From: Pseudomonadales bacterium
GTDB lineage: Bacteria > Pseudomonadota > Gammaproteobacteria > Pseudomonadales > Azotimanducaceae
Direction of reading: 5' to 3'
Length of the DNA: 64,000 nt
Assembly (NCBI GenBank): GCA_965199815.1
Contig: CBDATE010000010.1
Coordinates: 26,384-90,383, forward strand
In this document: one piece after another, positions 10,108-32,374 of the stretch
Layout of the letters: every line of letters starts with the position of its first letter
Position numbering within the stretch: the first letter of the stretch is position 1
Notes under the pieces: generated by a model
The model's database searches: none
What the model saw: the letters and a program-made list of their open reading frames with translations, nothing else
What the model was told of the DNA's origin: nothing
Program-made: the position numbers and the translations under genes

Positions 10108-10120
10108 CCATTTCATCAGC

Positions 10121-12498: not shown

Positions 12499-12756
12499 TC
12501 ATGCCCCACCTTTTTCAACAACATAGACATAGAGTTCGGCTTCTTGCGAGGCGTACAGCAAGCGGTGTCCGAGGAAGTGGCAGTAGTCGGAGAAATCCTT
12601 GCGGGTCGTTGGGTCGGTCGCGGTGATGCGTATGCGCTCACCAACCGACATGTCACGAACGCAGTTGCGCAGCAGCATGAGCGGCTCCGGGCAGGTCAAC
12701 CCCCTGGCATCGAGGCTTCTTTGCGTCATCTGCTGTGTTGTCGGCGTATCTTGCAT
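12499..12756 (-). CDS. tusA: Sulfurtransferase TusA/SirA family
   Basis: 85-aa ORF with LDARGLTCPEPLMLLRNCV (CPxP active-site motif). Confidence 0.85.
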   Translation of the reverse strand: MQDTPTTQQMTQRSLDARGLTCPEPLMLLRNCVRDMSVGERIRITATDPTTRKDFSDYCHFLGHRLLYASQEAELYVYVVEKGGA

Positions 12757-12802
12757 CAGGATATGGAGTAATCTCTCACTACATTCAACCAGACAGACAT
12801 TC

Positions 12803-14155: not shown

Positions 14156-14243
14156 CATACTGTACGTATAATCAGACTCTCGGAATACACGCGTTTGCAG
14201 ACGGCCAACCAGGGAAAACCACTGCGTGAGAGGCAGCCTCGAT

Positions 14244-15251: not shown

Positions 15252-15293
15252 AGATTGACACATGACTCACAGTCACTGGAGACTACCAACATC

Positions 15294-16568
15294 ATGAACC
15301 CCTCGCGAATCTGCCTCGTCCTGTCGCTTGCCATCCCGCTGCTCGCCATGTCTCTCGGCGGCTGTGCGACCACGGCCGAAGTGCGCCGGGTGGACATCAC
15401 TCCGGCGAAGCAGAGTCCGCAGCCAATTGACGAAATGCGCCTGCTCGATGTCGGCATACTGCACTTTCAGCCGAACATCCCGGAGGATTTCGACGAGCAG
15501 ATTGAAGACAACATCATGCCCGAGATTCGCCGCGCCGAAGCCTATTTCCTGGCCTATCAGCAAAAGCTGGTGCTTGAAGGCACAGGCAATTGGGGAGCAG
15601 TGCGCGTACTTCCGCGGCCGAGCAACGCAGTCGATGTCCTCCTCGAAGGGCAGATCGATGTTTCCAATGGCGAGCGACTGGCGGTGCACGCCAAGGCAAC
15701 CGATGCCACCGGACGCATCTGGCTGAACAAATCCTACAAGGCGCTTACCAGCCGCTATTCCTACGGGAACAGGCAGGGCGAACAGATAGATCCCTACCAC
15801 GGGGTCTTCCGCGAGATCGCCGACGACCTGCTCAAAGCCATGCTGGAACTGCGCGATGAGCAGCTCGACCGCATCAAGCTCGCGGGGGAATTGCGCTTTG
15901 CGCGCGACTTCTCCACGGAAGGATTCGGCGACAACATCAGCATCCGGCGCGACGGACGGGTCACCATCAAGCGCCTGCCCGCCGAAGGCGACCCGATGTT
16001 CGCGCGGGTGCGCGAGATTCGCAAGAAGGAACATCTGTTCATCGACACCCTGGACGAGTACTACGGTCAATTCAGCGACGAAATGTCAACGGCCTACAAC
16101 GAATGGCGACAAGCTTCCTTCGAGGAGGTGTATCAACAGCAGGCGATGAAGCGCGAAGCACTGACAGAACTCATCGCCGGTGCCGCGCTGATTGCCGGTG
16201 GCATCTACGCACAGACGAGCAGCAATCCGATTACCACAACCTCCGGGGCGGTGGGCATGGCAGGCGGCGCGGGGCTCATCAAGAGTGGTCTGGACAAGCG
16301 CGCCGCGGCCCAGATTCACTCGGAAATCCTGGCGGAACTCGGCGAGTCCGCGGGCGAGTCCATCGCCCCGCACACGATCGAGCTGGAGAATCGCACCATC
16401 TATCTGACAGGCAATGTCGAGGCACAGTACGAAGTCTTTCGCGAGGCCCTGCGTCGCTTGTACTTCGAGGAAATGGGACTGACGCTACCGGAAGAAGCGG
16501 CTGACTCGGACGTACAGGCAGAGCGCCCGCAACCCGAGCAGGTGCCAGAGACCCCGTACACCGGCTAG
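15294..16568 (+). CDS. Lipoprotein, unknown function
   Basis: It has a lipobox (LLAMSLGGC). The 424-aa sequence is non-repetitive, with a Gly/Ala-rich hydrophobic segment near the C-terminus (LIAGAALIAGGIYA...GAVGMAGGAGLI). Confidence 0.6.
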   Translation: MNPSRICLVLSLAIPLLAMSLGGCATTAEVRRVDITPAKQSPQPIDEMRLLDVGILHFQPNIPEDFDEQIEDNIMPEIRRAEAYFLAYQQKLVLEGTGNWGAVRVLPRPSNAVDVLLEGQIDVSNGERLAVHAKATDATGRIWLNKSYKALTSRYSYGNRQGEQIDPYHGVFREIADDLLKAMLELRDEQLDRIKLAGELRFARDFSTEGFGDNISIRRDGRVTIKRLPAEGDPMFARVREIRKKEHLFIDTLDEYYGQFSDEMSTAYNEWRQASFEEVYQQQAMKREALTELIAGAALIAGGIYAQTSSNPITTTSGAVGMAGGAGLIKSGLDKRAAAQIHSEILAELGESAGESIAPHTIELENRTIYLTGNVEAQYEVFREALRRLYFEEMGLTLPEEAADSDVQAERPQPEQVPETPYTG

Positions 16569-16616
16569 ACCAGATTGCGTCCTGCGGCGCAGACTCCGGG
16601 CCGCCACCGGCAGCAA

Positions 16617-18095
16617 ATGTCTGATTCTGAAGTCATCCAACCGCGCAAGGTACAGCTCGGTGCCGACACCTCGCTGGTGCCCGGATTCAGGTTCAGGTAC
16701 ATCTGGGTGACCCTGGCCGTGGGTCTCGCAGCCTTGTCCCTGACTGCGCTCATTCTGTTGGCACCGGAAATATCACGCGACCCGCCGCCGCCACCTCAGC
16801 CACAGACAGGGGCAGCGCCGATGGCGGACAGAGGCGAGCTCTCCACCCCCTTGCAGATGCAGCGACACGAGCGCGCGCTCGAAGAGGCGAACCGTTTCGT
16901 CAGGCAATTCACGGAACTCGAAATTGAACTTGAAGACGCATGGAATGTGCGCGCCTGGGGCAAACAGGCATTCGAAGCGGCGGGGCAGCTGGCAATCGAA
17001 GCCGAACGCGCCTTTTCCGAGCGAGACTACGAATCGGCAATGACAGGCTACACGCAAGGTGTCGGCGCGCTGGAGAACATGCTCGCGAATGCGCGCTCGA
17101 ACTACGAACAGCAGGTGCAGATCGCCCTTGATGCACTCGCCGAACGCGATGCCGAAGCGGCCAGTCAGGCGCTCGATGCGGCCGCGCTCTATCAGCCGGA
17201 GGCCGCCATGATCGAGAGTGGTCGGCGACGACTCGCGCGGCTTGATGAACTCGATGCCCTGCTCAACCGGGCATCCGAGGCAGAGACCGGCGGCAACTAC
17301 GGCGAAGCCCTTCGTCTGGCCGAACAAGCGCGCGCCATGGATCCGGGTACGCGAGGCATCGCCGACATCATCAGCCGCTTGCGCCAGGCGGGCCTTGATG
17401 CGAAGTTCAGGGCGATACTGGCAGAAGGTTATACCGCTCTTGATGGCGAGGACTTCGAGAGCGCAGAAACGGCCTTCACGGCGGCGCTCGCCCTGATTCC
17501 GGGTGACCCGGCGGCTCGACAGGGACTCGATCAGGTGCTGACCAGCCGCTCGAACTCGCGCATCCGGATCGGGTTGGCCGAGGCGACGCAAAAGATCCAG
17601 GCAGAAGACTGGGAAGGCGCAATCGAGGCACTTGAACAGGTGCGCCAGATCGATCCCAACCTGAGCGAAGTCAATGCAGGTCTCCTGAATGCTCGCAGTC
17701 GCAAGGCGCTCGACGAGGCGCTCGACGAAGTGCTGCGCGACCCGGGGCGGTTGGCCGATGAGCGCCGCTTCACGCGCGCCAGCACACTGCTGAGCGAGAG
17801 TTCACGCATCGAGTTGGCCGGGCCAAGGCTGAGCGCACAGCGCGAGAAGCTTGCCGAGTTCATCGACATCGCCTCCGGAGAAGCCAGGGTCACCCTCTTG
17901 TCCGACGACAAGACGGATGTGCGCCTGCAATACCACGGAGACCTCGGTCGATTCAGGCAGCGCGAGATGATTCTGCGACCTGGCCGCTATCTGATTCAGG
18001 GCGGTCGTGACGGCTACCGCGATGTACGCTTCGAGGTTGACGTAGCGCCCGGTGAGCAGCGCATCGAAGTGCTGTGCGAGGAGCCGGTGCGCTAG
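16617..18095 (+). CDS. Membrane-anchored TPR-repeat protein with a PEGA-like C-terminus
   Basis: It has one TM helix (IWVTLAVGLAALSLTALILLAP) and an Ala/Glu/Leu-rich TPR-like repeat region. The C-terminus (RVTLLSDDKTDVRL...ILRPGRYLIQGGRDGYRDVRFEVDV) resembles a PEGA beta-sandwich. The start is taken at the ATG at 16617. Confidence 0.55.
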   Translation: MSDSEVIQPRKVQLGADTSLVPGFRFRYIWVTLAVGLAALSLTALILLAPEISRDPPPPPQPQTGAAPMADRGELSTPLQMQRHERALEEANRFVRQFTELEIELEDAWNVRAWGKQAFEAAGQLAIEAERAFSERDYESAMTGYTQGVGALENMLANARSNYEQQVQIALDALAERDAEAASQALDAAALYQPEAAMIESGRRRLARLDELDALLNRASEAETGGNYGEALRLAEQARAMDPGTRGIADIISRLRQAGLDAKFRAILAEGYTALDGEDFESAETAFTAALALIPGDPAARQGLDQVLTSRSNSRIRIGLAEATQKIQAEDWEGAIEALEQVRQIDPNLSEVNAGLLNARSRKALDEALDEVLRDPGRLADERRFTRASTLLSESSRIELAGPRLSAQREKLAEFIDIASGEARVTLLSDDKTDVRLQYHGDLGRFRQREMILRPGRYLIQGGRDGYRDVRFEVDVAPGEQRIEVLCEEPVR

Positions 18096-18099
18096 CCTG

Positions 18100-20166
18100 A
18101 TGTTCGCATCCAACTCCGGCACCATCACGCCAACCCCCTACCGGGCAACGCACAGACCGAACGCCGGGCGATTGCTGCGCGCCTGGCTTTTCGCCGTCAC
18201 GCTCGCTGTTGTTGCGCTACTCATCGGCCTGGCAAGCTGGTTCCTGTTCACCGCCAAGCGCGTCGAAATTATCGTGAGCGAGTACAGCGGGGCCGCTATC
18301 GAGCGCCCCGTCGAACTGGCAATACGCGGAGGCCTGTCCCTGCCGCTGGGAAATCTCAGGCTCATCCGCCGAGGGACGTACCAAATCAGGATTACCGCCC
18401 CCGGTTATCACGATTTCGAGGATGACCTCAGCATCAAGGCAGGCTCGCGACGCTTCGAATACCGCCTGGAGCGGCTGCCCGCACAACTGAGCGTGACCTC
18501 CGAGCCGAGTGGTGCGCGCATTCGCCTGGGCGAGACCGAGCTCGGCACAACGCCTCTCTCCGATGCCCCGGCAGCGGCCGGTACCTGGTCGCTGTATGCC
18601 GAATTACCGCTCTACCGGAGTGTGGAGAAAGAGATCGAAATCGAAGGGCTGGACTTGCCGCAGCAACTGCACATCGAACTTGATCCGGACTTCGCGCGTG
18701 TCAGCCTGAGCACGATTCCGAGCGGTGCCGAGGTGCTGGTGGATCGGGAAGTACGCGGCATCACGCCGCTGGAACTCGACCTTGCGTCGGGGACACACAC
18801 CGTCCTCTTGCGCAAGAGCGGCTATGCGCCGAGGTCCGAGCGGCTCGAAGTTGTCGCCAATCAGGCACAGGAATTGCGTGACCTGCGTCTGACCAGGGCA
18901 TCCGCGCGACTGCGCGTGGAGACCACTCCCGAGGGCGCAGTGGTGTTTCTGGGCGACGACTATCAGGGACTGTCTCCCTTGAACCTGAGCCTGGCACCGG
19001 AACGAACTCAACGCCTGCGCGTACGCAAGATCGGCTACGAGGATGCCGAGCGCAGCCTCACGCCCTCACCCGGCAGCAACGAGACGATTCGCGTCGAGCT
19101 GGTCCGTTCGCTCGGCGCGGTGGTGGTGCAGGTCTCACCCGGAGATGCCGAACTTTTCGTGGACGGAAGCAAGACCCCACAGGCCAATACCCGCCTGGAA
19201 CTCTCGGCCGAGCCGCATCGCCTGGAGTTTCGTCGTCTCGGCTACGAACCCGTGGTGCGCGAAGTGCTGCCGAGACCCGGCTTCACGCAGCGTATTGAAG
19301 TGCGCATGCTGACGCTCGAAGACGCGCGCATCGCCAGGCTCAAGCCGGAAATCACCACAGCAGCCAATCACAGGCTGGTGCTTCTCCAGCCCACGACCAT
19401 CGAACTCGGTGCCTCCCGGCGCGAGGCCGGACGGCGCGCCAACGAAGTGCTGCGCGAGGTGCCGCTCACGCGCGAGTTCTATCTCGCCACTACCGAGGTC
19501 ACCAACGCCGAGTTTCGTGCCTTCGCTTCCGGCCATCAGTCGGGCACACATGCCGGACATTCGCTCGACGGCGACACGCAACCAGTGGTCAACATCAGTT
19601 GGCAGGATGCCGCGCGCTATTGCAACTGGCTGTCCGAGCAGGACGGCCTGACACCCGTGTACACAGTGCGCGGGGCGAATGTCGAAGGCTGGGACATGCG
19701 CCGAAGCGGCTATCGGCTACCGACCGAGGCCGAGTGGGCCTGGGCGGCCCGCTATCAGGGAGATGCACAGCCGCTGCTGAGAATGCCCTGGGGCGATGCC
19801 GCGAAACCCCCGGAACGGCACGGAAACTACGCCGACACCTCGGCCACCTATGTCGTCAGCCGGGTGATTTTCGGCTACAACGACAATCACATTGTCAGTG
19901 CGCCCGTGGCCAGCTTTGCCGCCAATCAGCACGGACTGTTTGATATGGGCGGGAATGTCGCCGAGTGGGTACAGGACTTCTACGAACAATCGCCGACTCG
20001 CCAGCAGCCGCCGGATGCCACGGGCCCGGACGAGGGGGAGTACCATGTCATACGAGGTTCGAGCTGGATGCATGGCTCCGTCAGTGACCTGCGACTTTCC
20101 TACAGAGACTATGGCGAGGATGGCCGCTCCGACCTCGGCTTTCGCATTGCCAGGTACGTAAACTGA
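18100..20166 (+). CDS. Membrane-anchored 4-5x PEGA repeat protein with a C-terminal FGE/SUMF1 (formylglycine-generating-enzyme-like) domain
   Basis: It has a TM helix (LLRAWLFAVTLAVVALLIGLASWFLF) and repeated PEGA-type units (VTSEPSGARIRLGETELGTTPL; LSTIPSGAEVLVDREVRGITPL; VETTPEGAVVFLGDDYQGLSPL; VQVSPGDAELFVDG). The FGE-sulfatase motifs are TEVTNAEFRAF, PVVNISWQDAARYCNWLS, YRLPTEAEWAWAAR, GGNVAEWVQD and IRGSSW. Confidence 0.75.
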   Translation: MFASNSGTITPTPYRATHRPNAGRLLRAWLFAVTLAVVALLIGLASWFLFTAKRVEIIVSEYSGAAIERPVELAIRGGLSLPLGNLRLIRRGTYQIRITAPGYHDFEDDLSIKAGSRRFEYRLERLPAQLSVTSEPSGARIRLGETELGTTPLSDAPAAAGTWSLYAELPLYRSVEKEIEIEGLDLPQQLHIELDPDFARVSLSTIPSGAEVLVDREVRGITPLELDLASGTHTVLLRKSGYAPRSERLEVVANQAQELRDLRLTRASARLRVETTPEGAVVFLGDDYQGLSPLNLSLAPERTQRLRVRKIGYEDAERSLTPSPGSNETIRVELVRSLGAVVVQVSPGDAELFVDGSKTPQANTRLELSAEPHRLEFRRLGYEPVVREVLPRPGFTQRIEVRMLTLEDARIARLKPEITTAANHRLVLLQPTTIELGASRREAGRRANEVLREVPLTREFYLATTEVTNAEFRAFASGHQSGTHAGHSLDGDTQPVVNISWQDAARYCNWLSEQDGLTPVYTVRGANVEGWDMRRSGYRLPTEAEWAWAARYQGDAQPLLRMPWGDAAKPPERHGNYADTSATYVVSRVIFGYNDNHIVSAPVASFAANQHGLFDMGGNVAEWVQDFYEQSPTRQQPPDATGPDEGEYHVIRGSSWMHGSVSDLRLSYRDYGEDGRSDLGFRIARYVN

Positions 20167-20459
20167 TGGTCAACACAGGATTCGCATTCATGTTGGGCGT
20201 GGCGTTCAGCAGCCTGCTCCTGATAACGCCTGTGTCGCTGCGGGCGCAGACGCAAGATCAGGATCAACAAACGGTACCGGGCGCGGTTATTGCGCCGCAA
20301 CCTGCAGGAGATGATGAAATCGATCCGGCAGGCGAGCCGCAGGAGGACGATGAGGACAGCACGGCTCAGCAACAGGCCCCTGCAGTGCTGATCGAAGATA
20401 TTATCCCCTCCGAGATGATCTCGGAGGATCTGGCGGTGGACTTTCCGATAGACATATGA
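20166..20459 (+). CDS. Small secreted acidic protein
   Basis: 97-aa ORF with a signal peptide (FAFMLGVAFSSLLLITPVSLRAQ) and a D/E/Q-rich remainder. Its start overlaps the upstream stop (TGATG) and its stop overlaps the next start (ATGA). Confidence 0.5.
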   Translation: MVNTGFAFMLGVAFSSLLLITPVSLRAQTQDQDQQTVPGAVIAPQPAGDDEIDPAGEPQEDDEDSTAQQQAPAVLIEDIIPSEMISEDLAVDFPIDI

Positions 20460-21256
20460 AGTCAACCACACGCACAGAACTGCTCTTCCAGGTCAGCGCA
20501 CTGGTGATTTGTGCGCTTCTGGTGCATCTGGTGTATGTGATCCTCATTCGCCCGAGCGCCGATGCCATACTCGAATCGCAAGCCGCCCTGGCGGCCGCCG
20601 GGCAGATGGTCGATACCCCCAGATCCATCTACGTCATATTGCGCGACTTCGAGCAGGAGGCGTGCTTCATTCTCATGTTCTGGTCTTTCGCCATCATGGG
20701 ATTCAAGGCCAGAATCGCTCTTGCGGAGCGTTCGCTGCTCGCTCAGGATCTGATCGGCGTGGTAGAAGGCGTGAGCATCCTGCCCGGCGATTCGCGCAAG
20801 TTTCTGCGCCCACTCGAAGCCCTGCCGGGACAGCAGCGCGAAGCACTCCTGACGCGCGCGCTCATGGCCGCTCTGAGTCGCTTTGCCTCGACGCGAAACG
20901 TGCAGGATGTATCCGAATCCATGCGCTCGATTTGCGAAAGCGAGGCCGAGCGCCTGGACAGCGAACTCGCCATGGTGCGTTATATCGCCTGGGCGATTCC
21001 CTCCATCGGCTTTATCGGCACGGTGCGCGGCATTGGCGAAGCTCTGGGGCAGGCGTACAAGGCGGTCGAGGGAGATATTGCCGGGGTCACGGCATCACTC
21101 GGGGTGGCATTCAACTCCACATTTACTGCCCTGCTCATCAGCATTCTGGTGATGTTCTTTGTCTATCAGTTGCAGCTCGTACAGGAACGACTGGTGCTTG
21201 ATGCCCAGCGCTACTGCGATGAGCGGCTGATTCGTCACATGACCGTTCGTGAGTGA
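20456..21256 (+). CDS. MotA/TolQ/ExbB-family proton channel protein
   Basis: 266-aa ORF with an N-terminal TM helix. The C-terminal pair of TM helices carries the family signature region (AWAIPSIGFIGTVRGIGEALGQAY...GVTASLGVAFNSTFTALLISILVMFFVYQL). Confidence 0.75.
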   Translation: MKSTTRTELLFQVSALVICALLVHLVYVILIRPSADAILESQAALAAAGQMVDTPRSIYVILRDFEQEACFILMFWSFAIMGFKARIALAERSLLAQDLIGVVEGVSILPGDSRKFLRPLEALPGQQREALLTRALMAALSRFASTRNVQDVSESMRSICESEAERLDSELAMVRYIAWAIPSIGFIGTVRGIGEALGQAYKAVEGDIAGVTASLGVAFNSTFTALLISILVMFFVYQLQLVQERLVLDAQRYCDERLIRHMTVRE

Positions 21257-22673
21257 GCCACGGGTGACTGCCAGACCCACCCTGAAAGTGCTTGATCTCA
21301 ACGACTGGGAGCTTTCCCTGTACGGCGAGCGGGAACCCGGAGGCGCGTGGGAACTGGCAGTACAGGCACCCGGCTTTGCCATGATCGATGGCAAGAACAT
21401 CCACTTCGGCGAACAGGCGATGCAGACGCACCGGCGCACACCGCTTGGCTCGTACGCCGCCTACTGGCATCGAATGGACGCATCGCCCCTGCGCTCGCGC
21501 AATCGTGAAGTGCGTACCGGTGCCGACCTGGTCTTCCATCAGCTCAGGTGCCTGATTGCCGAGAGCGAGGGTTCGGGGAGCACGGGAAGGGGAGATGTCT
21601 CCGCGTCGCGGACAGTGATCACGGTGCCAAGCCACTACAGCAAGGATCAGCTCGCAGTACTGCTCGGCATTATCGAGCAGACGAACATTGCGCCGGTCGC
21701 GATGGTCGATAGCCTGATCGCAGCCGGGGCCACGGACCCGGCGGACTTCATCATCGATCTGTCGTTGCACCAGATGACCATCGTCCGCTCCGAGGTCTCG
21801 CCCGAGCTGGTGAAACGCGTGACGGTGGAATCGGTACCGGACGGCGGCTTGCTGCCACTCCTCGATGCCTGGCTGGCGCGCATTGCCGACGAGTTCGTGC
21901 GCGAGACGCGGTTTGATCCGCTGCGCATCGCCGACACGGAACAGCAGCTCTGGTCGCATCTCTACGCCTGGCTGAGCGGCGAAGTGAGCGCGCGGGACCA
22001 CGGGCTGCATCTCGAGGTCAGCAACAGCTCCGGGCATTGGCACGTGAACTTTGATACCCGCGAGCTGGAGCGCATGACCGCGAAGCTGGTGCAGGACGCG
22101 GTGGCACTGTGCGCCGAGGTCGAGGATGCCGCGCTGCGAGTCAGTGCGCGCGCGGCGCGCATACCGGGGCTCGTCAAGGGTATTCGCGAGGCCGGGATCA
22201 GGAACTGCGCGACGCTCGCCGCGGATGCCGTCGTCAGGGGCATCGCGGGCAATGCGGATGTGCCTGGACAGGACAGCCAGGCGGGCATCAGATTCATGAC
22301 GGCTCTCGAGACGGTGGAGAACGACGCGACGGCTGCCGGGCTGAATGCGGGGACACACACCGACATGGGTGACATGGGTGCGGGGACACACGACAAAAGC
22401 GACGGGGACACACACCGCCCAGGCGAAACGCGCCCATCGGCACCCACGCATCTGGTCTATGCCGGCGCGGCCTACGAAGTGCCCGACGGAGCCGAACTGA
22501 CCACGCTGATCAGCGCATTTCCGGAGAGCGACTCATATCGTCTGGTCAAGACAGCTGATGCCATTCACTTCTACCGCATCGGCGAGGATGCCGAAGAGCC
22601 GGTGCAATCGCTCGGCTGCGGAGAGGTCTTTGCCACGGACGGCGGCAACCTCCTGGCCATCAGGCTCGCGTGA
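21249..22673 (+). CDS. Hsp70/actin-fold protein with degenerate nucleotide-binding loops
   Basis: ITVPSHYSKDQLAVLLGIIEQTNIAPVAMVDSLIAAG parallels DnaK [37 protein letters not shown]. The phosphate-1 position reads VLDLNDWELS (DnaK GIDLGTTNS). The phosphate-2 position reads FIIDLSLHQMTIV (DnaK VYDLGGGTFDVS). The start is a GTG at 21249. Confidence 0.55.
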   Translation: MSEPRVTARPTLKVLDLNDWELSLYGEREPGGAWELAVQAPGFAMIDGKNIHFGEQAMQTHRRTPLGSYAAYWHRMDASPLRSRNREVRTGADLVFHQLRCLIAESEGSGSTGRGDVSASRTVITVPSHYSKDQLAVLLGIIEQTNIAPVAMVDSLIAAGATDPADFIIDLSLHQMTIVRSEVSPELVKRVTVESVPDGGLLPLLDAWLARIADEFVRETRFDPLRIADTEQQLWSHLYAWLSGEVSARDHGLHLEVSNSSGHWHVNFDTRELERMTAKLVQDAVALCAEVEDAALRVSARAARIPGLVKGIREAGIRNCATLAADAVVRGIAGNADVPGQDSQAGIRFMTALETVENDATAAGLNAGTHTDMGDMGAGTHDKSDGDTHRPGETRPSAPTHLVYAGAAYEVPDGAELTTLISAFPESDSYRLVKTADAIHFYRIGEDAEEPVQSLGCGEVFATDGGNLLAIRLA

Positions 22674-22674
22674 C

Positions 22675-23754
22675 ATGGCGCGCAGGAAGCTGTCAACTTT
22701 CTCCATGTCCTTCCTGGACGTGATGTCCTGCGGGCTCGGTGCCGTCGTGCTCATGTTCTTCATCCTCAATCACGAGAGCATTCAGGCGTTTGCCGAAGAC
22801 AATGAAGTCCTGCTCGCAGAAATACGGCGACTCGATTTCCTCTCGCAGGAAAGCGACATGAGCCTGTCCGATCTCGAAAGCGCCATCGCCGAGATCGAAC
22901 AGCAACTCGAGCAGACGCGCGCCTCGAAGGAGCAGCTCACGGAAACGGCGGAGCGCGATCAGGAGTCCCTGCAGCGCATCACTTCCGGCCTCGCGGCAGA
23001 AGAGTCGCGCGTCGAGACCCTGGCGAGACAGGTCGAAGCGCAAAAACAACAAGTGGAAGCCCTCGAGCGGGATGCACAGGATGGCGGCGGCACTTCACTG
23101 CGCGAACTCGAAGGCGAAGGCAGCCGCCAGTACCTGTCCGGCATACGCATGGACGGTCGGCGCATCGTGGTCGCCATAGACACCTCGGCGAGCATGCTCG
23201 ATGAAACTCTGCTGAACGCGATACGCAGGAAGAACATGCCCGCCGAGCAGCGCCGGACATCCGACAAGTGGATGCGCACAGTGCGCACCGCGAACTGGAT
23301 TGCCGCCTCGCTCCCGCTGGAGAGCCAGTTCGAATTGATCGTGTTCGCAGAAACAGCGCAGGCAATCCTGGGCGAAGCTCGCTGGCGACCCAGCGCAACC
23401 GGCGATCATCTGCAACGCGCCTTCGACGCACTCGAAGAGATTGCCCCCGAGGGCGGCACCAACCTGGCCGCGCTGATGGATGTGCTGGACAGCCTGTCTC
23501 CGAAACCGGACCGCGTATTTCTGGTGACTGACGGGCTGCCGACCCTCGGCCGCCGTACACCTCGGCGCAATACCATATCGGCGCGTGAGCGGCTGGAGTT
23601 ATTCCTCGATGCCGTCAATCGCGTGACCCCCGGTATGGCGTTCAATATCATCCTGCTCCCGCTTGAAGGAGACAACGCGGCGGCCGGTGCTTACTGGGAA
23701 CTCGCGCGCAATACCGGCGGCTCCTTCCTGTCACCATCGGTGGACTGGCCATGA
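22675..23754 (+). CDS. ExbD/TolR-like TM helix + coiled coil + VWA domain protein (paralog 1)
   Basis: The start is taken at the ATG at 22675. The N-terminus MARRKLSTFSMSFLDVMSCGLGAVVLMFFIL resembles the ExbD/TolR TM helix and keeps the membrane Asp. An E/Q/L/R-rich heptad region follows. The VWA MIDAS is VVAIDTSASM, with a later EGGTNLAAL and FLVTDGLPT. Confidence 0.65.
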   Translation: MARRKLSTFSMSFLDVMSCGLGAVVLMFFILNHESIQAFAEDNEVLLAEIRRLDFLSQESDMSLSDLESAIAEIEQQLEQTRASKEQLTETAERDQESLQRITSGLAAEESRVETLARQVEAQKQQVEALERDAQDGGGTSLRELEGEGSRQYLSGIRMDGRRIVVAIDTSASMLDETLLNAIRRKNMPAEQRRTSDKWMRTVRTANWIAASLPLESQFELIVFAETAQAILGEARWRPSATGDHLQRAFDALEEIAPEGGTNLAALMDVLDSLSPKPDRVFLVTDGLPTLGRRTPRRNTISARERLELFLDAVNRVTPGMAFNIILLPLEGDNAAAGAYWELARNTGGSFLSPSVDWP

Positions 23755-24758
23755 TGAAACGCAGGGAAAACGAAGACTTTGGCATGCCGTTTCTGGCCAT
23801 GATCTGTTGTGGATTCGGTGGCCTGCTGCTGCTCCTGATGGTGGCCGAGACCTCGGAGACGCGCATCAACGAACAATCCGTAATCGACCTTGAAGCCCGC
23901 GTCAACATGATGCGCGATGCCCTGCTCGATTCGCGCCGCGACTCTGACCAGGCCAAACTGACCTTCTCCGACATGCAGTCGGAACTCGACCGGGAGTCGC
24001 GAGCGCTTCGCGACTTGCGCGCACGCATCGCGAGAATCGAGCAGGAGCTCGAGGCAGCGGACGAGCAGGCATATCAACTTGCCGAACAGGCGCGCGGTCT
24101 GGCGAAGGCGCGCCAGTCCCTGACTGAAGAGATGCTGGCGCTTCAGGTGACAGGCGGAATCACCGGCACGAACGCCATCGGCGGCATCACCGCCGACAGT
24201 CAATACATCATCTTCGTCATCGACACCTCGGGCAGCATGTTCAGCTACGCCTGGGAGGGGGTGCGACGCAAGGTGGGAGAGGTGCTGGCGGTGTACCCGG
24301 AAGTCAGGGGCATTCAGGTGATGAATGATATGGGGGACTACATGTTCCGCAGCTTTGCCGGGCGCTGGATGCCGGACTCTCCGACCGTGCGCAGGCAGAT
24401 AGTTGACCGACTGTCATCCTGGAATCCGTTCTCCAATTCAAGCCCGGTCGAGGGTATTCAACGTGCGATTTCCACCTTCTTCGACCCCGAACTGGAGATT
24501 TCCATTTATGTGTTCGGAGACGACTTTCAACAAAACAATTCCATCCAGGGAGTTGTCGATGCCGTGGACCGGGCCAATCGCGAGAGTCAGGAAACGGGCC
24601 GTCGCCGGGTGCGCATTCACGCTGTGGGCTTTCCCGTGCTCTTTCAGCCAGACGCTCCGCAACAAGCGCGCATCAGCGCGTACAGGTTCGCCGCGCTGAT
24701 GCGCGAATTGACGCAGCGAAACCTCGGTGCCTTTGTCGGCTCTTCGGAATTGCAATAG
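23751..24758 (+). CDS. TM helix + coiled coil + VWA domain protein (paralog 2, lacks the TM Asp)
   Basis: The N-terminus is MMKRRENEDFGMPFLAMICCGFGGLLLLLMVA, followed by a coiled-coil region. The VWA MIDAS is IFVIDTSGSM. Its start overlaps the upstream stop (ATGA at 23751-23754). Confidence 0.65.
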   Translation: MMKRRENEDFGMPFLAMICCGFGGLLLLLMVAETSETRINEQSVIDLEARVNMMRDALLDSRRDSDQAKLTFSDMQSELDRESRALRDLRARIARIEQELEAADEQAYQLAEQARGLAKARQSLTEEMLALQVTGGITGTNAIGGITADSQYIIFVIDTSGSMFSYAWEGVRRKVGEVLAVYPEVRGIQVMNDMGDYMFRSFAGRWMPDSPTVRRQIVDRLSSWNPFSNSSPVEGIQRAISTFFDPELEISIYVFGDDFQQNNSIQGVVDAVDRANRESQETGRRRVRIHAVGFPVLFQPDAPQQARISAYRFAALMRELTQRNLGAFVGSSELQ

Positions 24759-24787: not shown

Positions 24788-25477
24788 ATGCCCCGATTCG
24801 GAAAATTCAACATGGCTTCAGTGCGGGTTGTCGGCCTCCTGATGCTGGCGGGCCTCATCACAGCCTGTGGCGGCGCGCAGGTACAGATGCAAAGCAGCTA
24901 TCCCCCGCCGCTGGTGCAACCGGTGCCGGTACATGTCGGCCTGCTGACCGATGATGCGTTCGCGAACTATCAGCACACGGAATCCATCGAGGGGTTCGGC
25001 GACTGGAGTGTGCTGGTCGGCAGCGATCAGCAACACATGTTCGAGCAAACCATGCGCGGACTCTTCGCCCGATTCTCGCAGGTGAGCGGCATCGGCCAGA
25101 CGGCGATGGGCGCTGAACTCATCATCAAGCCAGAGGTCGATACGTTCGAGATCAGCATTCCCGGACAGTCGCAAACCGAGTTTTTCGAGGTTCGCATCGT
25201 GTATCAGATACAACTTCTCGAAACGCAGGGGCAGGAGGTGGTCAATTGGACACTGTCTGCTTATGGCCGCTCCGATGTGCGCAACTTCCGCAGCCTCACG
25301 GGTTCGAACTCCGGGGCCGCACTGGCGGCCGCCACCAGAACGGCACTGCGGGATGCGTCAGCCCTGATCGCGCGCCAGCTTCCGCTCCTGCCGGAGATGA
25401 AAACCTGGTTGGCGGAACGCGCGCGTCGCGGCGAATCATCTGCTGGCGAGGTATCCGGCGAGGCGACCGGCGAATAG
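24788..25477 (+). CDS. Lipoprotein, unknown function
   Basis: It has a lipobox (LMLAGLITAC). An alternative start is the second Met at 24812. Confidence 0.55.
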   Translation: MPRFGKFNMASVRVVGLLMLAGLITACGGAQVQMQSSYPPPLVQPVPVHVGLLTDDAFANYQHTESIEGFGDWSVLVGSDQQHMFEQTMRGLFARFSQVSGIGQTAMGAELIIKPEVDTFEISIPGQSQTEFFEVRIVYQIQLLETQGQEVVNWTLSAYGRSDVRNFRSLTGSNSGAALAAATRTALRDASALIARQLPLLPEMKTWLAERARRGESSAGEVSGEATGE

Positions 25478-25583
25478 CCCGCCCACGGGCCTCCCCGTCA
25501 CGGTGTGTGTCGCCTTCGCTTGACGAAGGGCGTACTATCTACCATCATCGTTGCAAGCGTCGGGTCGTCCCCGGAAGGTACTG

Positions 25584-26243
25584 ATGAGAAGATTTCTGTG
25601 CATCGCCTGTCTTGCCGGGATCATGACAACCCTGACGGGCTGCGTCACCTCGAGCGTTCAAATCATCAGGGAGGGCGACACCGGCATTGACGGGCAGGAT
25701 GCCGTGGTGGTACTTGGCAAGAGTCAGCAGACCGCCGGCCACGAAACCGAGATCGAGTATATCGGCTGCGTCGGACGCTCCCTGCTACGCGCCGACACAC
25801 CGTTTCAGGTGATTTCCCAGAACGATTTCAAGGATATGACCTTCCCCTGGTTCGAACCCCGCTTTGCGCCGCGGGAGGTCAGCGAATTCAGTGCTCTCAT
25901 TGAAGAACCCATGTTGCGTCAGCGTATGGAGTCTCTCAGTGTGCGCTACATTGTCTGGATTGAAGGCACCACGGAAAACACGGGGTCGGGCGGTGGCATG
26001 ACCTGCGCGGCATCACCCGCCGGGGCAGGATGCTTCGGCTTCGTGCGCTGGGACAAGTCCTCGCAATACGAAGCCTCCATCTGGGATGTCAGGAACAACA
26101 CGACCGTCGGCAAGATCAGCGCTCAGGCCTCGGGCACATCATTCATGCCCGCCGTAATCGTGCCTGTGCCCATGATTGCGCCGGTGCAGTCAAACGCCTG
26201 CAACCAGATGGCTGATCAGATCGGGGAGTTTCTTGCCGGGTGA
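25584..26243 (+). CDS. Lipoprotein, unknown function
   Basis: The start is taken at the ATG at 25584, giving [20 protein letters not shown] (lipobox). Confidence 0.5.
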
Positions 26244-26267: not shown

Positions 26268-28292
26268 TCACACCAACAGTGGGGCAATGACCAGAGAGAC
26301 AATGGCCATCACGTTGATGAGAATGTTCATGCTCGGCCCGGAGGTGTCCTTGAACGGGTCACCGACCGTATCGCCCACCACGGTGGCGGCATGGGTGTCC
26401 GAACCCTTGCCGCCAAGATGACCCTTCTCCACATACTTCTTGGCGTTATCCCAGGCACCGCCAGCATTCGCCATAGTCAGCGCGAGCAACACGCAGCCGA
26501 GCAATCCGCCACCAAGCGCGCCACCTAGCGCCTCCGGGCCTATACCGAACCCGACCGCCGGTGGCACACCCACGGCGATCACGCCCGGAATAATCATGCG
26601 ACGCAAGGCTGCTTGCGTGGCAATATCGATACAGCGCGCGGTATCCGGCTTCCCCGTGCCCTCGAGCAGGCCGGGAATCTCACGAAACTGGCGACGAATT
26701 TCGTTCACCATATCCATGGCCGCATCGCCGACTGAAGTCATGGTCAATGACGCAATGAGAAATGGTGTGATGCCCCCGATAAAGAGCCCGATGAGCACCT
26801 TGGGGTCACCCAGGTGCAACGAAAATTCACCCTGTATGTTGCTGATGGTTTCAACATAGGCCGTGATGATGGCCAGCGCAGCCAGCGCAGCTGCTCCTAT
26901 GGCGAAGCCCTTGCCGAGCGCGGCGGTGGTGTTGCCCACTTCGTCGAGTGAATCCGTGATCTTGCGCGTCTCTTCCCCAAGCCCGCCCATCTCGGCAATG
27001 CCGCCGGCGTTATCAGCCACGGGCCCGTAGGCATCCACCGCCATGGTCATGCCCACAGTGGCAAGCAAGCCGACGGCGGCGATGCCAACGCCATAAAGCC
27101 CCGCCAGTTCCGTCGAAACCCAGATGATGGCGCATATGGTCAACAGTGGTACGACGACTGACTGCATGCCGTTGGCAAGACCGGTGATCATGACGGTGGC
27201 GGAACCCGTCTGGCCCGCCTCGGCGATCTTGCGAATGGGTTTCGCCGAGGTGTAATACTCGGTGACCAGTCCGATGATGACACCGCCCACGGAGCCGAGC
27301 AGCACTGCCTGCCAAACCGAGGCGCTGGCATTGCTCAGATCCACAACGAACCAGGCCGCAACAAGGAAGATGACGGGAGTGCCTACCATGCCGATCCTGA
27401 GCGCCTTGGCGGGATTTGCCGACGAGAACGCGCGCACCAGAGCGATGCCCAGCACCGAACAGACGAGCCCCACCGAAGCGAGCATGAGCGGCAGAAACAT
27501 GAGTATTTCCTTGCCCCTGTACTCGCCAAGGCCGGGGGCGATAGTTTCCACCGTCGCTGCACTCAAGGTTGCAGCGATAGCGATAGTGGCAATCATGGAG
27601 CCGCAGTAGGACTCGAAGATATCCGAACCCATGCCGGCCACATCTCCGACGTTATCGCCGACATTGTCGGCAATCACACCCGGGTTGCGCGGGTCGTCCT
27701 CGGGAATACCGGCTTCGATCTTGCCAACCAGATCCGCGCCCACATCGGCACTCTTGGTATAAATGCCGCCGCCGACGCGCGAAAAGAGCGCTACCACCGA
27801 AGCTCCCATGCCGAAGCCGTGAATGTTCTCGGCAGTGTGCGGGTCTCCACCAAAAAACAGGTACACCGCACCCAGACCGAGCAGGCCCAGAGCGGCAACG
27901 GCGAGCCCCATGATGGAGCCGCCAAAGAAGGCGACGGACAGTGCGTCCGACATGCCTCGGGTGTGCGCCGCTGTGGTGGTACGCACATTCGCGCGCGTTG
28001 CGGTGTACATCCCCAGCCAGCCAGCCAGTGCCGACGAAAGCGCCCCGGCAAGGAATGCCAGTGCCGTTTCCGGACCCAGAGACCACCACAGGATACCCAG
28101 AAGGATGGCCGCGAATATGGCGAGATTCAGATACTCCCGGCGCATGAACACCATGGCGCCTTGATGAATCGTCTCGGCGATGTCCTGCAATGCCTGCTCT
28201 CCGGCTGGATAGCGTCGCACGAGAAAATAGATGACCCCCGCAACTGCGAGGCCAAACGCACCGACAAGGGGCGGAACTAGTTCTATCTGCAT
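26268..28292 (-). CDS. hppA: Membrane-bound proton-translocating pyrophosphatase
   Basis: The 674-aa part of the 944-aa track ORF begins at [19 protein letters not shown]. The motifs are [42 protein letters not shown] and [13 protein letters not shown]. Confidence 0.9.
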
Positions 28293-28379
28293 GGTTGTGA
28301 TCACCGTGAAAGTGCTGGCGAGTCCGCCAGGGTCAGGTGGAATGGGAAAATGAATAGCCCGCAATTTTAGCATGAGGAC

Positions 28380-29440
28380 AGAGGCGAACTCCGAACGGGG
28401 AGCTCGTTCACTAGATATGAGACCGAGGGGCGGGCGCGGAAAGGGAGGATACGGCGACGGGGTTTCCTGATCGAGGGACATATGGGGCCGGATGTTGTTG
28501 TATCCGTACCTGGCGAACGACTTCGGCGACGGTGAGTTCGCCGCCGAATCCGCCCCGGAATTCGATACGAGATGTTCGACACAGCCGTTGAGCGCGTGGC
28601 GGGAGGACGAAGAGCGGGAGTTTGTTGTGTTGGCAGGCTCGTTCGAACTCGGCCATGAACTCGGAGCCGGCTGAAGGGATTTGATCCACGAGTAGTCATC
28701 GAGCAGGGCGTTGAGGAAGCGGCGAGCGTTGTAAGCGGTGGCGGACGTGAAGACGCGGCAGAACATGATCTTGGTACTTGGGCAGACGGCCGGAACTCCT
28801 TGAGTGTTTTGCCGTCGCGGGAGATGGACATGTGGTCGATACAGACGAGTTGGCCGGGTGTGGAGGCGCGCATACCGGAGGGGAGGCGCTTGGCGTGGCC
28901 GTGGGCGAAGTTGCGACGCTTCTTGGGTTTGGTACGACCGCGGAGGAAGGCGCAGGGGCGTATATGGCCGAGTGCAATGCCTTTCTTCAAGATGCGCCCG
29001 ATAGTGGACTCGCTCAGGAGGGTACCTTGATGGGCGAGCACGATGTGCAGCCTGGCCTTTCCCATAGACTTTTCCTACATAAGAGGGGAACTTGCGACGC
29101 ATGTTCCAGACTGCCCACGCGGTATCGCGTGTCCACTCGTGTCCCCGGGACGAGCGCGGCTTCCTGCTCTTTGCGGCGAGTGCGCGGACTCCGCCATCCC
29201 GGTAGCGTTTCTTCCAGCGGTCCAGCTGTGGAGAGTCGCCCTCGACCAGCCGATAGCATCAAGTGGTGGCCTCGGAGCAGCCTTCGGAGCGAATCGGAGG
29301 TACATCCCGGATCGGTCGAAGGCATCCGCGTGACTTCGTCAAATTTTCTCTTGGAGTAAAATTGCATCGTTCGGTACCCTTTCGGTTGTAAAAAAGAAGT
29401 CAGTATCCGAACCGTCGCCCGGATGCTGCGTGTGCGTGGC
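28380..29440 (-). mobile_element. Decayed IS transposase (HTH + rve/DDE integrase core) scattered over three reading frames
   Basis: Fragments appear in different minus-strand frames. These are ...[11 protein letters not shown]; [29 protein letters not shown]...[11 protein letters not shown]...GKTLKEF; [25 protein letters not shown]; [25 protein letters not shown]; and [15 protein letters not shown] (the rve C-terminal YNxxRPHxxL pattern). I identified no terminal inverted repeats. Confidence 0.65.
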
Positions 29441-29648
29441 ATCCGGGGGTACCGGCGCAGATGAATCGCTGCGCCCCTTATTGGACAGGATCGTTCAAGG
29501 AGTCCTCGTCGAGATGAGGTGTGGTTTGGGTCAGGGCTCGAGAATCAGGTGACGCAGAGTGATGGATTTGGGCCGGGTACTCTTGCCGAGGGGCTGTGTG
29601 AAGTCAGGAAGGAGTGAGGTGGTCGGGAACGCTGCGGGGGGCGGCGAG

Positions 29649-29678
29649 TCATGGCCGGAAGCGAACTTCCGGCCATGA
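29649..29678. other. 13-bp-stem perfect hairpin in the spacer downstream of res
   Basis: TCATGGCCGGAAG-cgaa-CTTCCGGCCATGA. There is no flanking T/U tract on either strand, so it is not a canonical intrinsic terminator. Confidence 0.6.
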
Positions 29679-29792
29679 ATGACCGGCGTATAACTGCCAG
29701 TTTTCAGGGCACTCCCTGAAAGAAATCAATCAATCCTTACCCAGGCTCCGCATCTGTTTGGACTAGTACAAACGGGGAGCTGGTCAAGGCAG

Positions 29793-29819
29793 GGGAAACT
29801 CTGAATAACAGAGGTTTCC
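29793..29819. repeat. Partial copy of the REP-like terminal hairpin (GGAAACTCTG-aataa-CAGAGGTTTCC)
   Basis: It matches the hairpin at 3179-3205 in opposite orientation (loop aataa vs ttatt) and the one at 38617-38645. It abuts the res stop codon at 29819-29821. Confidence 0.7.
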
Positions 29820-32374
29820 TATGCCCCCAGCGCTGCATTCAGTTGCCGTTGCCAGGCATCCTCATCCACCACCCTGAAACTCACCACCTTGTTGCGCATG
29901 GCGGGCACGAATTCCGCCCAGTCGGCCCTGCGGGCATGCTCGCTACACAGATCGAACACGGAGCGCTTGTATTCCGTGTTGGCCGATTGCCCGAGATGCA
30001 GCCCCTTGGTCTCCAGAACATACACCCGATGGAAGGCATCGCTGGAATTTTCCTCATCGGGTCTCAAGGTGACGATGAAATCTGCGTAGATGCGGCCTCG
30101 CTGCCAACCCTGAACGTAGTAATCCTTGCGGGCGCGGTTGCGGTACCAGAAGAACAGGCGCTCCTGACGGTCCAGATAAGTGGCCACCTTGCTCTCCAAG
30201 TCGTTCAGGTCATCCTCCGCGGTCCAGTCGAACAGGCTGCGCTGGTAGGGGGTGCCGTCCTCGCGATTGGCTTGCTTGGCCGGTGGCACTTCGATGGCGG
30301 CGGGCAGTCGATGGAAGCTCAAGTCGTCCATCACCACCATGAAACGCATCAGACCGGAATCGAGCAACTCGCCGAACACGCGCTCGGCGAGGCGGTCACG
30401 TTCTGCGCCAAGTCGCTTGCGCATTTCTTCCAGTATGAAGAGTGCGTTCGCCGCCACCTGCTGTTTGGAGTGTCTTTCCAGCAGCTTCCCGAACACACGG
30501 CGAGCCAGATCATGGCCCCGCCACGGATTGGGCATGACATCGAGCAAGTGGTGCGCCGCAAAGTAGAAATCCATCCCGTCACCCCTGGTGACCGGGCTTT
30601 CAATCCTGTCCGGCTCAGCGAGCAGAGGTTCCCGAGCCAGGCCCGCCCGCAGTGCCAACTCGCGGCGCTCGCCGTGTTCCAGAGGAAGGTCGTACAGCGG
30701 AGACACATCCACCTCGTCCCAAGGCACCTTCGAGAGAATGTCCGCCTCGTAGTACACGAGCCGCCACTTGCCCTGGTCCTGAATCATGAAGGCTGGCAGC
30801 ACAAGGTCCCGGGCCGCTTGTCCAAGGGGCTGGCGCGGCTCATGCCGAACGAGGCCGGCTGGCCGGGCGGAGGCATCCTCGTCCAACTCGATATGTCCCT
30901 CCAGGCCATGCAGACCCTCGAGACCAAATCCCTTGCGTACATCCTTCAGCAGATCGTTGCCGCGGCGATGGAAGCAGAAGACATAGCTTTCATCCAGCGA
31001 GCGGACATGGGTCTTGCGGGCAGCTGGCTGCCGCAGAATTCGGCCAACCAGCTGCGTGAGGGCGTTGCGGGAACCGGGGTTGGTCAACAGGCACAGGACA
31101 TAGGCAAACGCGCAATCCCACCCCTCCTGCAGCGCCTGCCTGGTGATGATGTAGCGAATCGGACAATCACGAGACATCAATCCGCCGACTTCGTCCACAT
31201 CCTTCAGTTCATCGCGTTGGCTGGTCTTGACGGCGATGTGCTCGCGCCGGATGCCCGGTACCCTGATCAGGTACTCGCGCACATCCTCCGCATGAATCAA
31301 GCCTGCCTGTCGCTGCTCGCGCCCGGTGCGCTCGACCTGAATCACACAGATTGGCCTGATGTAGTGCCCGCTCGCTGCTTCATAGGTACGCGCTTCTTCT
31401 TCAAGATAGTCGCGATGGGTGAGCGCGGCAAGCAGGGTCTGACGCCAATCAACATTGGCACTGTTGCGGATGTGCAGGTCGAGCTTGATCATCTCTTCGG
31501 ACAGGAGGTCGCGCCCCGACACTTCCACCAGTATGTTGGCAGTCTCGGGCGGCGTGGCGGACAGCTCGACGATCATGCAGGGGTTGAACCCCTCGAGCGT
31601 CGCCTTGGCACCGGGGCTGTACGCCTTGTGCCCCTCATCAAGAATGATGAGGGGCTGCAACAGGCGCAGGGTGTTGCCGAGCGAGGTCTTGATTTGACGC
31701 TCCCAAAGACCCGCGCCGCCAGCACCGCCATCGCCGCCAGCACCGCCATCAAAGGTGTCGAGATTGGGCACCTCTTCCAGCAGTTGTCGCTGCCCCGCCA
31801 AGTCGTCATCGTCCGGAAAGAAGCGCTCGAAGCCGGCGCTGTCGCGAAACATCCGCAAGGTTTCCTTGGTCATGCGATTGGCTGACGGCAGCATGAGCAT
31901 CAACACACACAGATTCTCGCGCACATCAGCAGGATTGAAGCGGCTGTTCTTTTCCAGCACCAGGGTTCGGCCAGCAGAAGCCAGATCAAGTTGCTGTCGG
32001 TAGGGATGGTCGCGGTCCTTCAGGGCACCCAGGGTTTGACGGTAGATCTGCGTTGTCGGAACAACCCACAACACCAGCCCGGTCTGACGGCGCAGGTAGT
32101 GAATGTTCACCAGATCAATGACCTTGATCGCAAGCAGTGTTTTGCCCCCGCCGGTCGGGATCTCGAGGCAGAAAGATGGCAGCGGTCGGCCCAGAGCGTC
32201 ACGACGTGACTGATAGGGACGCCCGGGTACAGCCTTCAGCCAGGTACTTCGCGCCCAATCGTAATCCGGGTCCACTTCCAGCAAAGGCAGCGCTTTTTCG
32301 CGCCACTCCCGCAATCGCTCAAGGTAGTTCTGAACGGTCTCCAGAGCGCGCTTCTGGAAGTCCTTGAGGATCAT
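29819..32374 (-). CDS. res: Type III restriction enzyme, Res subunit (SF2 helicase + C-terminal PD-(D/E)xK)
   Basis: The motifs are CLEIPTGGGKTLLA (motif I) and LIILDEGHKAYS (motif II), with C-terminal YADFIV...VYVLETKG. Its start overlaps the mod stop (ATGA at 32371-32374). Confidence 0.85.
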   Translation of the reverse strand: MILKDFQKRALETVQNYLERLREWREKALPLLEVDPDYDWARSTWLKAVPGRPYQSRRDALGRPLPSFCLEIPTGGGKTLLAIKVIDLVNIHYLRRQTGLVLWVVPTTQIYRQTLGALKDRDHPYRQQLDLASAGRTLVLEKNSRFNPADVRENLCVLMLMLPSANRMTKETLRMFRDSAGFERFFPDDDDLAGQRQLLEEVPNLDTFDGGAGGDGGAGGAGLWERQIKTSLGNTLRLLQPLIILDEGHKAYSPGAKATLEGFNPCMIVELSATPPETANILVEVSGRDLLSEEMIKLDLHIRNSANVDWRQTLLAALTHRDYLEEEARTYEAASGHYIRPICVIQVERTGREQRQAGLIHAEDVREYLIRVPGIRREHIAVKTSQRDELKDVDEVGGLMSRDCPIRYIITRQALQEGWDCAFAYVLCLLTNPGSRNALTQLVGRILRQPAARKTHVRSLDESYVFCFHRRGNDLLKDVRKGFGLEGLHGLEGHIELDEDASARPAGLVRHEPRQPLGQAARDLVLPAFMIQDQGKWRLVYYEADILSKVPWDEVDVSPLYDLPLEHGERRELALRAGLAREPLLAEPDRIESPVTRGDGMDFYFAAHHLLDVMPNPWRGHDLARRVFGKLLERHSKQQVAANALFILEEMRKRLGAERDRLAERVFGELLDSGLMRFMVVMDDLSFHRLPAAIEVPPAKQANREDGTPYQRSLFDWTAEDDLNDLESKVATYLDRQERLFFWYRNRARKDYYVQGWQRGRIYADFIVTLRPDEENSSDAFHRVYVLETKGLHLGQSANTEYKRSVFDLCSEHARRADWAEFVPAMRNKVVSFRVVDEDAWQRQLNAALGA

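Follow-up and report, generated by a model that had tools for sequence, protein, structure and literature searches.

Ion-driven 5:2 motors (MotAB, ExbBD, TolQR, GldLM and ZorAB) drive flagella and nutrient uptake and supply power for envelope integrity, secretion and defence. The putative motor considered here is encoded in a stretch of 64,000 nucleotides from a bacterium of the Pseudomonadales (Azotimanducaceae; assembly GCA_965199815.1, contig CBDATE010000010.1, positions 26,384 to 90,383), referred to below as the window. It is centred on two adjacent genes at positions 22675-24758 of the window, whose products, VWA1 and VWA2, combine an N-terminal transmembrane helix with a coiled coil and a VWA domain. 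The closest published system is known from a computational description of transpore-helix vWA proteins encoded beside tolQ-like genes in Proteobacteria and Verrucomicrobia (PMC12204202; Mol Biol Evol 2025, Fig. 4c-d). These proteins occur 'predominantly in heterologous pairs' and co-occur tightly with tolQ homologues, with no syntenic tolR or exbD; each vWA monomer carries a conserved Asp, and AlphaFold3 models place the Asp residues inside the threonine ring of the pentamer (PMC12204202). The axle architecture has thus already been described, and the same model was reached there independently. The sequence-only reading of the window, which knew of no described stator partner of such architecture, is out of date in this respect.

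The VWA1/VWA2 family was likened to the published one by description, not by sequence. Shared features are an N-terminal Asp helix, a C-terminal vWA domain, a heterologous pair, linkage to a tolQ-like gene without tolR or exbD, and a threonine ring; the taxa found here were Pseudomonadales and one metagenome-assembled genome (MAG) labelled Limisphaerales. In contrast to the published family, VWA2 of the window's clade has Ala or Ser in place of the Asp. Moreover, the pair belongs to a conserved envelope cluster of twelve genes on the same strand (g01-g12), a context (PEGA/FGE-sulfatase, TPR/TonB_C-like, lipoproteins, Hsp70 nucleotide-binding-domain-like protein) that is not mentioned in the accessible part of PMC12204202. 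What is new is the variant with a single Asp and the definition of the 12-gene context, to which the Hsp70-like protein belongs. The features of the pair and of the neighbouring channel gene are as follows.

20456-21256, + strand: g07, MotA/TolQ/ExbB-like channel subunit, presumed pentamer (Pfam MotA_ExbB)
22675-23754, + strand: VWA1, 359 residues, starting MARRKLSTFSMSFLDVMSCGLGAVVLMFFIL; transpore helix, coiled coil and VWA domain; carries the membrane Asp
22702-22770, + strand: VWA1 transmembrane (transpore) helix SMSFLDVMSCGLGAVVLMFFILN; Asp15 codon GAC at 22717-22719, in FLDVM
22774-23082, + strand: VWA1 heptad-repeat helix, residues 34-136 (heptad periodicity, proline-free, AlphaFold2 helices)
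23152-23751, + strand: VWA1 VWA domain (Pfam VWA_2, E 1.4e-09; AlphaFold2/Foldseek); metal ion-dependent adhesion site (MIDAS) D169-T-S171-A-S173 at 23179-23193, T262, D286
23751-24758, + strand: VWA2, 335 residues, starting MMKRRENEDFGMPFLAMICCGFGG; paralogue with transpore helix, coiled coil and VWA domain
23781-23849, + strand: VWA2 transmembrane helix GMPFLAMICCGFGGLLLLLMVAE; Ala16 codon GCC at 23796-23798, at the Asp position of the family
24192-24755, + strand: VWA2 VWA domain (by alignment to the VWA1 family); D158-T-S160-G-S162 at 24222-24236, SNSSPVEG, D257

The stop codon of VWA1 overlaps the start codon of VWA2 (ATGA). The two proteins had been read from the sequence as paralogues with the order helix, coiled coil and VWA domain, and the open reading frames (ORFs), BLASTP and profile-profile comparison agreed with this view. 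VWA1 and VWA2 matched each other directly in BLASTP (E 9e-07), and the profiles of their orthologue families aligned with a probability of 99.3% (E 9e-21) over the transmembrane helix, the coiled coil and the VWA domain up to the MIDAS Asp (VWA2 residue ~260). By these alignments, VWA1 and VWA2 are true paralogues. Each protein contains a single hydrophobic helix, with a basic or neutral N-terminal and an acidic C-terminal flank. Because of these flank charges, an N-in topology is predicted for both, as had been suggested, and a periplasmic location of the VWA domains is supported. Residues 34-136 of VWA1 and 34-131 of VWA2 are devoid of proline, and the 3.5-residue hydrophobic periodicity of these stalks was reached by just 0.15-0.25% of shuffled sequences (0.15% for VWA1). 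Topology and coiled-coil content, two points that the sequence-only reading had put forward for checking, were borne out, with one helix, N-in orientation and heptad periodicity beyond that of shuffles.

An AlphaFold2 model of VWA1, based on 30 homologues, comprised a long helix (residues 21-59 and 64-136) followed by a VWA fold, with a predicted local distance difference test (pLDDT) score of ~90 across residues 160-359. The best PDB matches of this model in Foldseek were the VWA domains of BatB (3ibs), TFIIH p44/Ssl1, CLCA1 and integrin I, with 4jdu, a related Bacteroides aerotolerance protein, also among them; a PDB sequence search with VWA1 returned nothing useful. The DxSxS motifs noted earlier in both proteins were found as DTSAS and DTSGS at the positions given above. 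Among orthologues, D169, S171, S173 and D286 of VWA1 are invariant, and T262 of VWA1 and the alignment columns of the MIDAS-type set of VWA2 (D158, S160, S162, the Ser of SNSSPVEG and D257) are invariant or nearly so. The MIDAS site is intact in both proteins at the motif level. As a single sequence, VWA2 matched Pfam VWA_2 only marginally (E 0.058).

The two helices differ at the membrane Asp, as had been read from the sequence: the matching codons, GAC for Asp15 of VWA1 and GCC for Ala16 of VWA2, are a single base apart. Conservation of the Asp among orthologues, which had been set beforehand as a refuting test, was complete for VWA1, with the residue kept in 114 of 114 orthologue clusters, in all 81 genome loci and in 117 of 117 representatives at 50% identity whose N-terminus is intact. 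VWA2 kept it in 105 of 118 orthologue clusters and in all 76 genome loci in which VWA2 was detectable, and it was present in both paralogues in four divergent loci. The 13 exceptions (11 Ala, 2 Ser) all fall within the window's own clade (at least 76% identity). Since both paralogues carry the Asp elsewhere and Ala or Ser is confined to this clade, the loss is recent and lineage-specific rather than a trait of the family; judging from this distribution, it is a derived change limited to the window's clade. The idea of 'one active and one inactive helix' as a family property consequently had to be abandoned. The ratio of nonsynonymous to synonymous substitution rates (dN/dS) within the clade, a rough estimate because dS is saturated, was 0.04-0.09 for VWA2, 0.09-0.12 for VWA1 and ~0.04 for the channel gene. 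By these rough values, computed at saturated dS, VWA2 of the Asp-less clade is still under strong purifying selection. The operon is intact in the clade members L082 and L083. In the VWA1 helix of the clade, Leu replaces Phe at position 21. Across hundreds of clusters, the motif FLDVMSCGFGA is near-invariant.

The search for this domain order in other genomes revealed large families. Relatives numbered at least 2,997 for VWA1 and at least 7,939 for VWA2 in a word-indexed search, and an exhaustive profile search gave 453 clusters (50% identity) at E <=1e-30 and 1,188 at E <=1e-10. Gene order was compared in 81 loci, 80 of them from species-representative genomes, the scan of which gave no relative closer than 45% identity. 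These loci came mostly from MAGs of the Pseudomonadales (Halieaceae, Azotimanducaceae and others), as well as from Kineobactrum sediminis and the MAG labelled Limisphaerales. The 12-gene order was retained almost everywhere the flanks sufficed, and the succession MotA-like gene, g08, VWA1, VWA2 was likewise kept in nearly all loci whose flank was long enough. VWA1 and VWA2 are neighbours in the window, in 76 of the 81 loci and in the divergent loci L084, L085, L087 and L089; the remaining five had no detectable VWA2 helix motif, for example at a contig end. Co-occurrence with a MotA/ExbB gene was likewise seen in nearly all loci with flank, bar a few in which tblastn with the window protein found none. 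In the more divergent loci the cluster is reduced or rearranged: g08 is missing from L087 and L088, which keep the PEGA/FGE-sulfatase gene, a small gene, MotA_ExbB and the VWA pair; in L089, MotA_ExbB comes after the VWA pair, and in L085 the pair lies beside a TPR/TonB_C gene.

An ExbB-like channel two genes upstream of the pair had been noted; g07 matches Pfam MotA_ExbB (PF01618; E 1.8e-14, 54 bits, cut-off 22.9), with a single gene, g08, between it and VWA1. In the alignment with E. coli TolQ (8odt, 9kpz), its residues Thr189 (21020-21022) and Thr222 (21119-21121) fall on the two threonines of the TolQ pore, T145 and T178 in E. coli numbering. The segments GFIGTVRG and AFNST, including both threonines, do not vary among 72 orthologues or in the divergent loci. 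A phmmer search (E <=10) of 15,429 ORFs, from the 81 loci and the whole window, detected no ExbD/TolR homologue; as a single-sequence search with E. coli seeds, it could have missed very divergent homologues. PADLOC gave no match for g07, g08 or their neighbours and merely weak coiled-coil-type matches for the VWA proteins; a known anti-phage defence system with MotA-like parts (e.g. Zorya) was rejected, because these matches amounted to coiled-coil noise.

At residue 237 of g07 (21164-21166), near the cytoplasmic end of its last helix, the window has Tyr, against His in the divergent loci and in 93% of all other orthologues. The change H237Y was present in all three channels of the Asp-less clade that were compared (window, L082 and L083), and it might compensate for the lost VWA2 Asp. 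Further clade-specific changes of the channel are Y11F, A77S, Q121E, P133T and D165E.

We consider it likely that VWA1 and VWA2 serve as inner 'B' subunits in a motor of the 5:2 type driven by the proton motive force, with g07 forming the outer pentamer. The suggestion of the sequence-only reading that the pair replaces ExbD/TolR/MotB fits the comparative evidence, because the VWA1 Asp is invariant, the genes are linked to MotA_ExbB, the channel threonines are conserved and no ExbD/TolR lies nearby. In the model that we infer, VWA1 and VWA2 would form a heterodimer via their heptad helices, and their N-terminal helices would enter the pore of the pentamer, with the membrane Asp level with the Thr189/Thr222 ring and taking up protons. 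Proton flow would rotate or pull the VWA dimer relative to the pentamer, while the helical stalk of ~100 residues (~15 nm) would bear the two MIDAS VWA heads across the periplasm, where they would bind a partner and transmit force or rotation. This partner is probably one of the envelope proteins of the cluster, namely the PEGA/FGE-sulfatase protein g05, the TPR/TonB_C-like protein g01 or one of four lipoproteins. With the VWA2 Asp lost, the motor of the window's lineage would have a single proton site. We favour a 5:1:1 motor that is driven by protons, bears VWA heads on a periplasmic stalk and has, in this case, one proton site. More tentatively, the 12-gene cluster as a whole may be a proton-driven envelope-spanning machine that runs on a single axle Asp in the window's lineage.

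Like ExbB-ExbD, TolQ-TolR and MotA-MotB, the system has a MotA_ExbB outer subunit with two pore threonines and an inner subunit whose N-terminus is basic and whose single helix carries an Asp close to its cytoplasmic end. Unlike them, it carries a coiled coil and a VWA domain instead of the periplasmic domain of ExbD/TolR or an OmpA-like peptidoglycan-binding domain, its inner subunits are the products of two genes, the Asp is followed by a distinct Gly/Cys-rich motif, and these subunits show no detectable sequence homology. A heterodimeric inner pair has been predicted for the AglR5:AglQ:AglS complex of Myxococcus gliding (PMC11761067). The resemblance to Agl would extend from this pair in a TolQ-like pentamer to the large envelope-spanning gene set with TPR, TonB_C-like, FHA and VWA (CglB) proteins; however, AglQ and AglS are TolR-like, and VWA resides there on a separate outer-membrane lipoprotein instead of being fused to the inner subunit. 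GldM is a shaft-like inner subunit without a peptidoglycan anchor, thought to drive a ring containing GldK, a protein with the FGE-sulfatase fold (PMC9389320). Because the VWA family lacks a peptidoglycan-binding domain, the closest working analogy would be the rotating shaft of GldLM/PorLM rather than MotB: GldL-GldM and PorL-PorM also have a single-pass inner subunit and a long periplasmic dimer that serves as a shaft, and an FGE-sulfatase-fold protein is found both in GldK-GldN/PorK-PorN (GldK/PorK) and here (g05), which may be a functional analogy. GldLM shows no sequence similarity to MotA/ExbB or VWA1/VWA2, and g05, unlike the GldK-type lipoprotein, is membrane-anchored and carries PEGA domains.

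A number of observations weigh against the motor interpretation. The likeness of the VWA helix to ExbD lies in the motif F-[IL]-D-V-M, the context of the ExbD Asp; the small-residue motif that follows the Asp (S/C-C-G-F/L-G-A) is conserved and differs from ExbD/TolR. When a 44-column profile of 28 helices was compared with all PDB chains (E <=10), no ExbD, TolR or MotB was retrieved, the sole match being a complex I subunit hit by chance, and Pfam ExbD (PF02472) did not match VWA1 or VWA2 at E <=0.1. The ExbD/TolR pattern seen in the sequence-only reading thus stands at the level of the motif, given the silent helix profile, and falls at that of profile homology. Membership of VWA1/VWA2 in the ExbD/TolR family was rejected, as there was no profile match and the periplasmic part is a coiled coil with a VWA domain; the two proteins are proposed to work like ExbD/TolR, not to belong to that family by sequence. 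The reach of the ExbD/TolR search is a further such point. In current models of 5:2 motors, two sites swap protonation states (PMC9389320), and the single-Asp state of the window's lineage fits these alternating two-site models poorly. A literature search found no experimental study of the VWA1/VWA2 family, and for the other vWA transducer family in PMC12204202 no deletion phenotype is reported. The proposed identity with the transpore-helix family of that publication, which was seeded from Idiomarina loihiensis, is based on described features.

Alternatively, the N-terminal helices could be plain anchors and VWA1 and VWA2 periplasmic proteins of the BatA/BatB type tethered to the inner membrane, acting outside the channel pore in the same envelope process. 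BatA and BatB are membrane-anchored VWA proteins from operons with TPR proteins, and the presence of BatB (3ibs) and 4jdu among the best structural matches of the VWA domain speaks for such a role, as does the lack of detectable sequence homology with ExbD/TolR/MotB. Bat proteins are not known to have a MotA/ExbB linkage, an ExbD-like Asp helix or a long coiled coil. A plain anchor, however, needs neither an invariant buried Asp nor the near-invariant FLDVMSCGFGA, and the channel with its intact threonine ring would lack any B-type partner, because no ExbD/TolR was found; we regard this explanation as unlikely. Highly improbable in our view is an arrangement in which the VWA proteins are TonB/TolA-like force transducers docked outside the pentamer and an unrecognised protein fills the pore. 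The single-pass proteins g04, g05 and g06 could do so in principle, g01 has a TonB_C-like domain, and the arrangement would resemble the other vWA family of PMC12204202. Yet the translations of the hydrophobic segments of g04, g05 and g06 contain no acidic residue, whereas the VWA helices carry the Asp and show no evident S-H-L-S/His motif of the TonB/TolA type, and it is the VWA pair that is still linked to MotA_ExbB in the divergent loci.

The system could also be degenerating or repurposed in the window's lineage, serving as a static envelope tether or scaffold and no longer as a motor. The loss of the VWA2 Asp in all 13 clusters of the clade would be in line with this, as would the clade-specific changes of the channel, among them Tyr for His237, a residue that is otherwise 93% conserved; against it stand the operon, whole in L082 and L083, the low if rough dN/dS values (with dS saturated) of VWA2, VWA1 and the channel gene, and the retention of the VWA1 Asp and both channel threonines. 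Such a fate appears distinctly unlikely. If the 5:1:1 motor is real, it would be a naturally asymmetric one, and 5:2-type motors would have no strict need for two alternating proton sites. The window's lineage is a natural case in which one of two supposedly essential Asp residues is gone and every gene is under purifying selection, so the need for both proton sites could be tested directly by comparing or swapping natural variants. The family occurs in Gammaproteobacteria of marine and soil habitats and in relatives of these, with at least 453 clusters at the 50% identity level. It would add to such motors an output module in which a coiled-coil stalk ends in metal-dependent adhesion domains. 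For experimenters, the conserved cluster provides a complete list of candidate partner genes; its other members are as follows.

12599-14155, + strand: g01, TPR protein with a weak TonB_C-like C-terminus, first gene of the cluster (TPR_12, E 1.4e-08; TonB_C, E 0.018, below the Pfam cut-off)
14226-15251, + strand: g02, Gly/Ser-rich predicted lipoprotein with an acidic C-terminus (lipobox ISAC; syntenic in most loci)
15255-16568, + strand: g03, predicted lipoprotein (lipobox LGGC; syntenic)
16575-18095, + strand: g04, membrane-anchored TPR protein (TPR_19, E 1.2e-07; one hydrophobic helix, residues 45-63; syntenic)
18052-20166, + strand: g05, membrane-anchored protein with five PEGA domains and an FGE-sulfatase domain of the GldK/PorK fold family (PEGA, E 1.5e-44; FGE-sulfatase, E 3.3e-44)
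20166-20459, + strand: g06, small acidic protein with an N-terminal hydrophobic segment, ending FPIDI (stop codon overlaps the start of g07)
21249-22673, + strand: g08, cytoplasmic protein with an Hsp70 nucleotide-binding-domain-like fold (residues ~10-355) and a C-terminal beta domain (residues 400-474), from AlphaFold2/Foldseek
24788-25477, + strand: g11, predicted lipoprotein (lipobox ITAC; syntenic)
25551-26243, + strand: g12, predicted lipoprotein, last gene of the cluster (lipobox LTGC; syntenic)

Start and stop codons overlap or abut at g06/g07, g07/g08, g08/VWA1 and VWA1/VWA2, which fits translational coupling of the subunits of one complex. The true start of g01 is uncertain; the gene is syntenic in most loci. 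Neither g02 nor g03 matched Pfam. About 60% of g02 consists of Gly, Ser, Ala and Pro, with near-exact internal repeats (SASGGGSSAGSMPSG occurs twice) and an acidic, helical-looking tail at its end, and its length is very variable among relatives. g05 was found in nearly all loci and in the divergent L087; its match to NCBIfam GldK/PorK (E 6.9e-30) is below the family cut-off. A short gene was also called at the g06 position in L001, L082 and L083, and the 57-residue protein encoded at this position in L087 (9063-9236) ends in FPVDI. BLAST does not connect g06 with the latter, because of low sequence complexity; g06 may be a conserved small subunit or ligand.

The AlphaFold2 model of g08 had a mean pLDDT of 84.7 and matched Hsp70/DnaK nucleotide-binding domains in Foldseek with E values of ~1e-14 to 1e-15 and a target TM-score of ~0.7; Pfam gave no match for this protein. 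By eye, the phosphate-binding glycine loops of Hsp70 are not apparent, with LDLNDWE and IIDLSLHQ found instead. In one distant homologue Pfam recognises a clear FHA domain (E 5.7e-13), and the C-terminal beta domain of g08 (residues 400-474) may accordingly be FHA-like. g08 evolves faster than its neighbours (24 homologues found), is syntenic in the close family and is absent from the reduced cluster of L087.

Directly upstream of the cluster lie gspN, gspC and gspD (8355-12055, + strand; Pfam T2SSN, T2SSC with PDZ, and Secretin), preceded by ORFs that resemble dapD and dapE by eye. The type II secretion genes gspN/gspC/gspD were considered as part of the system; nothing in the short flanks covered supports this. 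The cluster is followed by a gene for an H+-pyrophosphatase (26268-28295, - strand), likewise in L082 and L083. In the window, however, ~1.5 kb at 28300-29800, upstream of the H+-pyrophosphatase gene, contain a 232-residue ORF without a Pfam match and, by eye, a possible frameshifted remnant of a transposase or integrase; the region may be an insertion. The next gene (29819-32374, - strand) encodes an 851-residue ResIII/DEAD helicase.

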